Of a stretch of DNA of 64,000 nt, positions 1 to 6,897 are shown in pieces. The DNA is taken from positions 20,793-84,792 of the forward strand of contig NZ_CALXGI010000004.1 of NCBI RefSeq assembly GCF_944387805.1, read 5' to 3'. Below the pieces are notes generated by a model, which saw nothing but the letters and a program-made list of their open reading frames with translations, was not told the DNA's origin and did no database searches. The DNA is from an uncultured Pseudoflavonifractor sp. (GTDB lineage: Bacteria > Bacillota > Clostridia > Oscillospirales > Oscillospiraceae). The number at the start of each line of letters is the position of its first letter. Position 1 is the stretch's first letter. The position numbers were made by a program, and so were the translations under genes.

Positions 1-653
1 TCCTCAATGTAGCCGTTCAGGTCGCCCAGCTTCATCTGCTGGCGGATAAAGTACTTGGCGCTGCGGCCAGCGATGAACCGGGTGACCAGCAACATGAAGC
101 ACACGCACAGCAGCACCACCAGGGTCAGCCACACGTTTTTGAACAGCATGGCGAAGAAGGTAACGGCGATCATGACCACAGAGTTGAACATCTGGGGGAT
201 GCTCTGAGAGAGCATCTGACGGAGGGTGTCCACGTCGTTGGTGTACACGCTCATCACGTCGCCGTGGGCATGGGTATCAAAGTACTTGATGGGCAGGGTC
301 TGCATGTGGCTGAACAGGTCGTCGCGGATGGTCTTCTGCACGCCCTGGGAGATGGCCACCATAATCCGGTTATAGGCCAGGGTGCACAGGGCGCCGGTGA
401 CGTACAGGCAGGCCATCATCAGCAGGGCCTGGAGAAGCGCGGTGTACACCGGGGTCTCCATGGTCAGCAGCGGGGCGATGTAGTCGTCGATGAGGGCCTG
501 GAGGAACAGAGAACCGCCCACAGAAGCGATGGCGCTGACCAGAATGCACAGCAGCACCAGGAAGAAGCGGAATTTGTAGCCGGCGAACACATAGCTGAGG
601 ATCCGGCCGGCGGTGTGGCGCTTGCCGGCGGAGGGCTGGGAATTCTTATTCAT
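1..653 (-). CDS. ABC exporter ATP-binding/permease subunit (N-terminal part; runs off the window start)
   Basis: Manually translated from ATG at 653: MNKNSQPSAGKRHTAGRILSYVFAGYKFRFFLVLLCILVS...YFDTHAHGDVMSVYTNDVDTL...KLGDLNGYIE, typical ABC_membrane TMD. Overlaps the stop of the upstream partner. Not in the ORF track. Confidence 0.9.
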   Translation of the reverse strand, partial: MNKNSQPSAGKRHTAGRILSYVFAGYKFRFFLVLLCILVSAIASVGGSLFLQALIDDYIAPLLTMETPVYTALLQALLMMACLYVTGALCTLAYNRIMVAISQGVQKTIRDDLFSHMQTLPIKYFDTHAHGDVMSVYTNDVDTLRQMLSQSIPQMFNSVVMIAVTFFAMLFKNVWLTLVVLLCVCFMLLVTRFIAGRSAKYFIRQQMKLGDLNGYIE

Positions 654-3186: not shown

Positions 3187-4032
3187 GTGAAATATTTTTA
3201 TGGGGCCAGAAAGCGGGGGCCCTATTTTGAAGGCTGGCAGCTGCGGCACCAGGCGCCCGGCGGGGAGACGCTGTCGCTCTTCCCCATGCTGCGCATTGAC
3301 AGGGCGGGGGGAACCACAGCCGCCATCCGGGTGGAGTCCCGGGAGGGCGCGTGGGACGTCAGCTGCCCGGGAGAGAGTTTTCAGGCCTCTGAGGGGCTGT
3401 TTCAGGTGTGGGTGAAGGGCAGCCTCTTCAATCGGAAGGGGCTGTGGCTGGACCTGCGGACCGGAGGCATGACTCTCTGCGGCGAACTGCGGTACGGACC
3501 TTTTACGCCGCTGAAGTATGATTTGATGGGGCCGCTGGGGGCGCTACCTGTCTTTCCGGTGCGCCGGGGGGTCATCAGCATGGGACACCGGCTGGAGGGG
3601 GTCCTGCTGCTCAATGGACGGCGGATTGATTTTACCGGCGGCACCGGATTTATCGAGACGTTCCGGGGCACGGAGCGGCCCATGGCTTCACTGTGGAGCC
3701 AGAGCATCTGGCGGGAAGAGCGGAGCAACAGCATCCTGGTCAGCGTAGAGCGGATGTCCACCCTGGCGGGTCCACGCGTCAGCTGCCTGTGCGCGGTGCT
3801 TTACGGCGGGCGGGAGTACCGCCTGGTCACCTACCGGGGCGCCAGCGTGGAGCACTGGTCGGCGGAAGGGGTCATTGTCCGCCAGGGCGGGCTCTGCCTG
3901 GCCGTAAGGCCGGAGGGCGAGGGGGAGCATCCCCCGGTCCGCTACCAGCTCTGGGAGGGGGAGCGCCAGCTCTTTGACCACCTGGACCCCTGGGCGGGCT
4001 ATCACTGCATAGAAGGGAAAAAGGACGGCTGA
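3187..4032 (+). CDS. Tocopherol-cyclase-like protein, divergent
   Basis: YFEGW, DLMGP, GVISMGH and WSQ segments resemble the clostridial tocopherol cyclase-like family; GTG start. Confidence 0.55.
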   Translation: MKYFYGARKRGPYFEGWQLRHQAPGGETLSLFPMLRIDRAGGTTAAIRVESREGAWDVSCPGESFQASEGLFQVWVKGSLFNRKGLWLDLRTGGMTLCGELRYGPFTPLKYDLMGPLGALPVFPVRRGVISMGHRLEGVLLLNGRRIDFTGGTGFIETFRGTERPMASLWSQSIWREERSNSILVSVERMSTLAGPRVSCLCAVLYGGREYRLVTYRGASVEHWSAEGVIVRQGGLCLAVRPEGEGEHPPVRYQLWEGERQLFDHLDPWAGYHCIEGKKDG

Positions 4033-5062: not shown

Positions 5063-5146
5063 TTATCGATCGCTGACGATAACCTGTTCATCGCCGCCAA
5101 AAATCAATTCGTCGACATCCGTACTCTGGATGTCAGTCCACGTCAT
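5063..5146 (-). CDS. Putative 27-aa acidic small protein MTWTDIQSTDVDELIFGGDEQVIVSDR
   Basis: ATG at 5146 preceded by GAGAGGGGGTTGAGG; TAA at 5063-5065; own promoter and terminator. Confidence 0.4.
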   Translation of the reverse strand: MTWTDIQSTDVDELIFGGDEQVIVSDR

Positions 5147-5178
5147 GGCCTCAACCCCCTCTCTAATTTGTTAACTTT

Positions 5179-5324: not shown

Positions 5325-5398
5325 GCAGGTGTAGTTCAATGGCAGAACGTCAGCTTCCCAAGCTGAACACGAGGGTTCGATTCCCTTCACCTGCTCCA
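5325..5398 (+). tRNA. tRNA-Gly (CCC)
   Basis: Cloverleaf: acceptor GCAGGTG/CACCTGC, anticodon arm TCAGC-TTCCCAA-GCTGA, T-loop GGTTCGATTCC, encoded CCA. Confidence 0.98.
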
Positions 5399-6313: not shown

Positions 6314-6421
6314 GGTGGGGCATCACATGCCCCAGATGAATATTCCTACATCGAATTTTGAATTTTAGTCTCCGGGAACACAAAAGGGAATTGGAAGTTA
6401 TACAAAAAGTGGAGAACTTCC

Positions 6422-6450
6422 TTGTAAAGCGCGGGATCCTGCGCTATAAT
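6422..6450 (+). promoter_or_regulatory. SigA promoter TTGTAA-N17-TATAAT for the sepF-like gene
   Basis: -35 at 6422-6427, -10 at 6445-6450. Confidence 0.7.
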
Positions 6451-6477
6451 GTAGAAAAACGCCAGGGAGGGAAAAGC

Positions 6478-6897
6478 ATGGGAATCTGGAACAAGGTGCG
6501 GGCGCGTATCCTGGGCGAGAGCTGGGAAGCGCCGGACGGTGCGGTGGAGAAGGATCCGCCGGAGAACAAGAAGCCGGGCCAGGGCTTTTCCCCGGCTGAC
6601 GACACGGGCGTAGGCAAGGTCATGGTGCTGACCCCCGGCAAGTATGTGGACGCGGGCAAGATTGCCGACTGCCTGCTGGACGGCTATGCGGTGGCGGTCA
6701 ATCTGGAGAGCGCCTCCCGGGAGGCGGCCCGGCGCATTGTGGACTTTCTCAGCGGCGCGGCCTACGGCCGGGACGGGCAGATGGTTCAGATTGGATACAG
6801 CGCCTATTTGCTCCTGCCCGCAGGAGCCAGGCTGCTGGACGGCGAGGAAGAAAAGGACCCGGACGGCTTTGACTTTGAGGACGCCCAGGGCTTTTGA
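6478..6897 (+). CDS. sepF: SepF family protein (stand-alone)
   Basis: KIADCLLDGYAVAVNLE...ARRIVDFLSGAAYG...YLLLP is the SepF core; ATG at 6478 after GGAGG. Confidence 0.8.
   Translation: MGIWNKVRARILGESWEAPDGAVEKDPPENKKPGQGFSPADDTGVGKVMVLTPGKYVDAGKIADCLLDGYAVAVNLESASREAARRIVDFLSGAAYGRDGQMVQIGYSAYLLLPAGARLLDGEEEKDPDGFDFEDAQGF

Follow-up and report, generated by a model that had tools for sequence, protein, structure and literature searches.

An unannotated gene for a small acidic protein in Oscillospiraceae, with a terminator stem conserved in sequence

A short open reading frame (ORF) that stands just before an intrinsic terminator, with another gene of the same strand beyond it, raises the question of whether it is the leader peptide of that gene or a small gene in its own right. 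Such an arrangement is found in the window (the whole stretch of DNA that was analysed, 64,000 nucleotides). A previous reading of its letters alone, hereafter the sequence-only reading, had described a 27-residue acidic ORF with a strong purine-rich ribosome-binding site, carried by an RNA whose 3' end would sequester the start codon according to the logic of leader-peptide attenuators or of fold-back-inhibited small-protein mRNAs, and had added that this might be a dual-function RNA. Gene callers skip small proteins of less than 30 amino acids, and the frame is unannotated. It is surrounded by the following elements.

5146 to 5063, minus strand: small ORF of 27 codons, with its ATG at 5146 and a TAA stop codon (5065-5063)
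5163 to 5155, minus strand: Shine-Dalgarno sequence GAGAGGGGG, which ends 8 nt before the ATG
5207 to 5179, minus strand: sigma-A type promoter of the small gene, with a -35 box TTGTTT (5207-5202), a 17-nt spacer and a -10 box TATAAT (5184-5179)
5256 to 5216, minus strand: A/T-rich upstream element, with AATACA (5256-5251), TTTACA (5243-5238), TTTATC (5232-5227) and TCTACA (5221-5216)
5030 to 5000, minus strand: first intrinsic terminator, with CCACACC (5030-5024) and GGUGUGG (5016-5010) around a 7-nt loop, followed by CUUUUUGUUU
4995 to 4959, minus strand: second intrinsic terminator, in tandem with the first, GGCGGUCUCCGG...CCGGGGCCGCC with a U run behind it

The acidic ORF and its strong ribosome-binding site are thus where they had been placed. 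The encoded peptide, MTWTDIQSTDVDELIFGGDEQVIVSDR, includes 7 acidic residues and 1 basic residue and is devoid of both a signal sequence and a hydrophobic segment. Its core motif is D10-V-D12-E-L-I15-F16-G and its C-terminus is S25-D-R27. The AlphaFold2 model obtained from the family alignment (mean pLDDT 71) displays one short helix over V-D-E-L-I-F, the remainder of the peptide being extended.

A six-frame profile search of whole genomes retrieved homologs that are all short ORFs (21-34 aa) starting with an ATG preceded by a Shine-Dalgarno sequence. They share the motif D-[VIL]-D-[DE]-[LM]-I-F-G...S-[DEQ]-R, whose last three residues directly abut the stop codon, and differ by their N-terminus, which is variable and often aromatic. 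Six residues are invariant across the homologs (D10, D12, I15, F16, S25 and R27; alignment A2). A DNA search against 60 relatives matched the region in 9 of the 10 genomes of the genus, whose copies all retain the 27-codon frame; in the more distant ones, the match is limited to the ORF itself.

The way in which these sequences vary is that of a translated frame. Among 32 distinct 18-codon cores, the entropy of the codon positions 1, 2 and 3 is 0.69, 0.42 and 1.24, respectively, and synonymous differences account for 48% of the codon differences in frame (2843 synonymous for 3078 non-synonymous) versus 12% and 4% in the shifted frames (675:5015 and 229:5262). All the synonymous codons are used for the invariant residues and, within the genus, serine 18 is encoded by AGC, AGT, TCT or TCC, i.e. 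it switches between the AGY and TCN families. The stop codon can be TAA, TGA or TAG while its position is fixed. The variation of third positions and the switch of serine codons therefore indicate that selection acts on the protein. The sequence-only reading had stated that loss of the ATG or of the frame in homologs, or a lack of synonymous bias, would speak against the peptide; the homologs retain ATG, frame and stop codon, and their synonymous bias is strong. This comparison shows the reading frame to be under purifying selection at the protein level in at least 40 genera of one Oscillospiraceae clade and, judged on this pattern of substitutions, the 27-codon frame is a real, unannotated small-protein gene.

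The E-values of a 27-position profile were computed per genome, hence a threshold of 1e-4. At this threshold (E<=1e-4), the family is present in 76 of the 401 genomes of the host's own family, belonging to 40 of 134 genera, almost always as one copy per genome. Its hosts include Pseudoflavonifractor, Flavonifractor (among them F. plautii ATCC 29863), Lawsonibacter, Intestinimonas and other Oscillospiraceae. A sample of the whole order gave matches in 15 of 26 genomes of the own family, versus 4 marginal partial matches in 374 genomes of other families; these weaker matches outside Oscillospiraceae stop short of the C-terminus and are probably due to chance.

A profile search in a library of 1.84 billion representative proteins yielded 81 clusters at 50% identity, all of them short and stand-alone, and no fused or longer natural form of the peptide was found among them. 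The longer entries of the library result from upstream alternative starts, some of them running antisense through the tRNA gene, or from read-through of the stop codon and the terminator under a wrong genetic code. Thus, nine artefactual long versions (P0019, P0024, P0028, P0044, P0045, P0051, P0066, P0086 and P0093) carry the terminator translated as ...PHL.VW.F.FY, and the long versions present in public collections are presumably gene calls made under the wrong genetic code. The exact protein of the window is missing from a collection of 15 billion proteins, in which four relatives are present, none of them carrying a name. No family match to the peptide was obtained in Pfam-A, NCBIfam, PHROGs, PDB sequences or the ESM Atlas, the sole PDB match being a chance repeat in a designed TIM barrel, and neither a corpus of 8.4 million full texts nor the searched supplements of the Sberro et al. 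preprint contain the motif strings. The peptide can therefore be classified, on the basis of these searches, as an uncharacterised small-protein family that belongs to no curated RNA or protein family. A mimicry of the C-terminal peptide of FtsZ was considered and rejected: the FtsZ tail, ...EDDPFNDIFKIFNRGK, shares only an acidic run and 'IF' with the peptide, and sepF, located nearby (6358-6897), is not a conserved neighbour.

The signals that surround the ORF are conserved together with it, whatever its location in the genome. The start of transcription of the small gene is predicted near 5172. Of 57 loci, 49 display a predicted promoter of the form TTGnnn-16..18-TAnnnT upstream of the ORF; its spacer measures 17 nt in 46 of them, and the -10 hexamer is TATACT in 23 and TATAAT in 19. 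The consensus is TTGnnT-17-TATAAT/TATACT. Nearly all the homologs carry AAAGGAGG or a similar Shine-Dalgarno sequence at an equal distance from the ATG, the GG columns being invariant (alignment A4). With such near-consensus signals, the small gene is probably expressed strongly and constitutively.

The A/T-rich element located upstream of the -35 box consists of TTTACA-like hexamers spaced by about 11 bp, and many genera harbour comparable phased hexamers (TTCACA, TTTACA, TTTATG, TTTACA) at the same place. In the upstream regions of two loci, L102 and L099, as many as four hexamers that resemble TTTACA, TTCACA or TTTATG recur every 11 bp directly 5' of the -35 box. We take these phased hexamers to resemble either the direct-repeat boxes of response regulators of the OmpR/PhoB type (PhoP/WalR-like) or a phased UP element; the A/T-rich element may accordingly be a UP element or a candidate site for an activator of the response-regulator type. 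A search for other occurrences in the genome of the window, whose G+C content is 60%, was swamped by AT-rich regions when a weight matrix of the hexamer was used, and strict repeat patterns led to 6 unrelated sites.

The second constant part of the unit is the first terminator. Its stem, CCACACC/GGUGUGG, is identical letter for letter in 30 of 40 loci; three loci have changes in both arms that preserve the pairing (CCACGCA/UGCGUGG in L030, CCACACA/UGUGUGG in L033 and CCACGUG/CACGUGG in L058). The stem is followed by U5-6GU4, and the 8 nt located 5' of it are purines in 74% of cases. Its surroundings are far less constant: the loop ranges from 4 to 26 nt, the stop codon lies 15-44 nt from the stem, and variation is free in the loop, the spacer and the third codon positions. 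The neighbouring tRNA-Gly gene served as a control: its terminator is a different one in every genus. The letters of the stem are kept while all these sequences vary, and selection therefore acts on the letters themselves, beyond pairing. The second terminator was found in L001-L006 only, i.e. in the close clade of the window, and is absent from the other genera. Hairpins of the form CCACACC...GGTGTGG number 1-4 per genome; those located elsewhere were considered as possible paralogs of the small gene and rejected, since they correspond, in five genomes, to unrelated terminators or to coding sequence. Pairing of the hairpin with the acceptor stem of tRNA-Gly was likewise discarded, the tRNA varying (GGUGU/GGUAU) while the hairpin is constant. 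In one species of the genus (L006), the terminator of tRNA-Gly(CCC) is itself CCACACC-loop-GGTGTGG, so that the same stem flanks both sides of the divergent pair.

The fold-back proposed earlier relies on a complementarity between GCCAUG (5149-5144), which includes the start codon, and CAUGGU (5019-5014). This complementarity does exist; it is nevertheless no better than chance, since 44% of the 3' ends can still pair with the start region over 6 or more consecutive bp once they have been shuffled. A longer, wobble-rich run of 9 bp, GAGGCCAUG/UGUGGCUUU, is shared by the window and the three relatives closest to it, for which shuffling gives p values of 0.01-0.06; it is absent in L006 and in all the other genera. 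As CAUGGU covers part of the loop and of the 3' arm in the terminator hairpin (5030-5010), the two structures would compete, as had been proposed; the ensemble, however, favours the terminator, whose stem has a pairing probability of 0.987 in the window versus 0.005 for the pairing of the start with the 3' end. The fold in which the start is paired is 2.1 kcal/mol worse than the minimum free energy (MFE) structure (-53.2 versus -55.3). Among 46 homologous transcripts, the corresponding median probabilities are 0.99 for the terminator stem and 0 for the start/3'-end pairing, and the longest complementarity reaches 6.4 bp on average versus 6.0 in shuffles. RNAalifold, applied to 31 transcripts from different genera, proposes a single conserved structure, the 7-bp terminator stem, with 2 compensatory pairs; no rod, antiterminator or other alternative pairing is conserved among them, and an internal hairpin of the ORF, GACAUCC/GGAUGUC, is confined to the genus. 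Masking of the start codon through pairing with the 3' end is therefore neither favoured in the window nor conserved.

The gene located downstream of the terminators, on the same strand, is the one expected from the sequence-only reading. Together with the gene located on the other side of the ORF, its features are as follows.

4897 to 4850, minus strand: predicted promoter region of the DedA gene, with a conserved AATCTTAA element (4897-4890), TGGCAT (4878-4873) and an extended -10 box TGgTAGCCT (4858-4850)
4770 to 4087, minus strand: gene of a VTT-domain (DedA/TVP38) membrane protein of 227 aa (PF09335, E 4.9e-19)
5325 to 5398, plus strand: tRNA-Gly(CCC) gene, divergent from the small gene

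In the window, about 190 nt separate the second terminator from the DedA gene. Across genera, the only part of the DedA promoter that is kept is TGnTAnnnT (TAGCCT, TATCTT, TAAAAT, TACTCT, TAGTCT, TAAGCT and others), which is therefore read as an extended -10 signature, and AATCTTAAG-like elements are found about 35-40 nt upstream of it. In L089, L099, L100, L031, L039 and other loci, the DedA promoter displays an extended -10 box TGGTAGCCT, seen in many genera, with a quasi-palindromic AAATCTTAAGAAATTT-like element about 35-40 nt upstream; this quasi-palindrome may be the operator of some regulator.

The neighbourhood was compared among 58 distinct loci, with neighbours assigned by ORF clustering and a GC3 criterion instead of annotation. 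In 31 of them the ORF has the co-directional DedA gene behind it, the downstream gene is convergent in 17, another co-directional gene is present in 6 and the situation was not judged in 4. In loci without DedA, the ORF, its promoter and its terminator are unchanged. Among the 401 genomes of the family, 32 carry both the small ORF and a DedA orthologue, 44 the small ORF only, 29 DedA only and 296 neither, counts that are descriptive only, related genomes being not independent. The DedA orthologue is thus found in 61 of 401 genomes and is missing from 44 of the 76 genomes that carry the small ORF; in several of the 32 double-positive genomes, the two genes are far apart or on separate contigs. 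The intervening promoter, the constancy of the unit in the absence of DedA and these counts argue for two separate transcription units.

Other neighbours also recur. About half of the loci have a tRNA gene no more than some 550 nt upstream; it is mostly tRNA-Gly(CCC), with Ser or Arg in some genera. This adjacency and the stable-RNA-like promoter may point away from DedA as the partner of the small gene. The list of recurring neighbours comprises VTT/DedA, YhhN, Lit, MatE, ABC-3 and tRNA genes. In several genera (e.g. at L087, 4933-6258, and L095, 4929-5588), DedA is followed by genes of the YhhN family and of Lit (lipoprotein intramolecular transacylase), which form a small membrane-lipid/lipoprotein cluster. 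In L005 and L020, hairpin-rich insertions of about 200-300 nt separate the terminator of the small gene (in L005, the second one) from the DedA promoter; sister genomes lack these insertions, which may be small mobile or repeat elements. Finally, an ORF of 281 aa (window 3187-4032, plus strand), previously read as tocopherol-cyclase-like, matched neither a Pfam nor an NCBIfam model at the thresholds applied.

From these data, an independent monocistronic gene, with its own promoter and terminator, that encodes a 27-residue, strongly acidic, cytoplasmic small protein is very probably the right description of this locus. The peptide would act in trans as a short binding motif that docks on a partner protein. 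In this view, D-x-D-[DE]-L-I-F would form a small amphipathic helix, beyond which the chain would be extended and rich in V/I up to the S-x-R that is invariant at the C-terminus; the model, with its pLDDT of 71 and its single short helix, is consistent with a binding motif that would fold upon its partner. The context offers a sole and weak candidate for this partner, the VTT/DedA membrane protein that is often encoded next to it. The sequence-invariant hairpin would end this very short mRNA and probably stabilise it, and may also be recognised by an RNA-binding factor. Indeed, the adjacency of DedA in 31 of 58 loci and the conservation of the letters of the terminator are unexplained by a plain small-protein gene and leave room for a role in cis or at the RNA level.

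The attenuator logic put forward by the sequence-only reading, in which translation of the ORF or fold-back of its start on the 3' end would set the formation of the terminator and hence read-through into DedA, is very unlikely to apply here. The order ORF, terminator and same-strand VTT/DedA recurs across genera in 31 of 58 loci, yet the ORF and terminator are unchanged in the 17 loci where the downstream gene is convergent, and a further 6 of the 58 have another gene. The 9-bp pairing between start and 3' arm can form in the window and three close relatives, with an alternative fold only 2.1 kcal/mol above the MFE; the antiterminator pairing is, however, not conserved, RNAalifold giving the terminator only for the 31 transcripts, and its probability (0.005 in the window, median 0 in the 46 homologs) and extent (6.4 versus 6.0 bp) speak against it. 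The stop codon is just 15-44 nt from the stem, but, judged by the footprint of a ribosome, a stem located at least 15 nt past the stop codon is probably too distant for a ribosome that terminates there to touch it. A conserved extended -10 promoter between terminator and DedA and, in the window, two tandem terminators are hardly what read-through control would call for, and the invariant residues (D, D, I, F, S, R) and fixed C-terminus differ from the codon runs of leader peptides. The opposite simplification, a non-coding sRNA (a '6S-like rod') whose ORF would be accidental, deserves almost no credence. It could appeal to the stability of the transcript of the window (MFE -78.3 kcal/mol, z = -3.4 versus shuffles); this reading is refuted by the codon analysis, in which substitutions recur with a period of three bases, start, frame and stop are conserved and serine switches between codon families. 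Moreover, the terminator is the only conserved structure, the GACAUCC/GGAUGUC hairpin being found within the genus only, and Rfam 15 (gathering thresholds and E<=10) gave no family, 6S included, apart from a sub-threshold, terminator-like match to DicF (21 bits versus a gathering score of 48).

A dual function of the RNA finds more in its favour than those two proposals, for a reason other than the one given earlier: the sequence of the terminator stem is conserved, while the fold-back is not. The mRNA of ~170 nt would then also be a riboregulator, or be itself regulated, through a sequence-invariant 3' module in which the purine-rich stretch, CCACACC/GGUGUGG and U5-6GU4 could be bound by Hfq, by CsrA or by a different RNA-binding protein, or serve as a pairing seed. 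We regard this as rather unlikely. The identity of the stem letters in 30 of 40 loci, whereas loop, spacer, third positions and the adjacent tRNA terminator vary freely, the low number of such hairpins (1-4 per genome), the purines 5' of the stem (74% over 8 nt) and the presence of Hfq and CsrA genes in the genome all fit it; L030, L033 and L058, which change both arms, still pair. Nevertheless, the conserved letters are buried in a stable stem instead of being exposed as a seed, a conserved complementary target was looked for and not found, no Rfam family matches, ordinary terminators commonly have a purine-rich 5' flank that pairs with their U tail, and a short, highly expressed mRNA may simply select strongly for one optimal terminator. 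The precursor of a secreted or modified peptide, either a pheromone or bacteriocin with a double-glycine leader or a RiPP cleaved after ...LIFGG, is more improbable still than the attenuator. The peptide is short and conserved and, in the window, ELIFGG loosely resembles the end of a double-glycine leader; the position of the second glycine is, however, variable (G, S, C, T, D, M, Q, R, E, A or N in alignment A2), cysteine and a hydrophobic core peptide are both absent, and no C39-peptidase ABC transporter, radical SAM enzyme or other maturase is found among the recurring neighbours. As a separate observation about Hfq, the gene is followed on the same strand, 150-350 nt downstream, by two further short stretches that match positions 44-63 of the Hfq model, in its C-terminal third (genome G000, contig C67, 11292-11891); they may be repeats or a partial duplication.

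The independent small-protein gene is thus among the better-supported cases of small proteins that can be obtained from comparison alone. Dozens of genera of gut bacteria that are abundant in humans and animals have kept it, and it is an easy experimental target in the cultivable species F. plautii. Two of its features are unusual, namely a terminator whose sequence is frozen across genera and the repeated presence of tRNA genes and of the gene of a DedA-family membrane protein beside it. A more ambitious reading, which we hold to be unlikely, is that of a dual-function regulator: the peptide would bind and modulate a conserved cellular target, most plausibly the VTT/DedA lipid-transport protein or else a component expressed from stable-RNA-type promoters, and the 3' hairpin of its mRNA, CCACACC/GGUGUGG, would be recognised by an RNA-binding factor. 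If true, this would be a new class of peptide-plus-RNA regulators specific to gut Oscillospiraceae. The locus also calls for caution, as an order of ORF, terminator and gene that mimics an attenuator in one genome is resolved into what appear to be separate transcription units by comparison.

Comparison with known systems places this gene more precisely. It shares with the leaders of attenuators such as trpL, hisL, tnaC and ermCL a short ORF with a strong Shine-Dalgarno sequence and a close terminator, behind which about half of the loci have a gene of the same orientation. Unlike them, it has no conserved alternative pairing and no regulatory codon run, its amino-acid sequence is conserved, a promoter separates its terminator from the downstream gene and the unit persists beside convergent or unrelated genes. 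Dual-function sRNAs that encode small proteins, such as SgrS/SgrT, RNAIII/delta-hemolysin and SR1/SR1P, resemble it by a transcript of ~170 nt, a conserved small peptide and an RNA element conserved in sequence; they differ from it in that its conserved RNA letters are those of the terminator stem itself, for which a complementary target was not found. Other bacterial small proteins of at most 50 aa stand alone and bind a larger protein, such as MciZ, Sda, MgtS, AcrZ and SgrT. The gene described here has no sequence similarity to them and its range is one Oscillospiraceae clade; furthermore, its product is strongly acidic and soluble, whereas most of the characterised small proteins are membrane helices. 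Like them, however, it is very short and monocistronic, possesses its own promoter and terminator and was missed by annotation, and its conservation is centred on a short motif that is probably structured only when bound.
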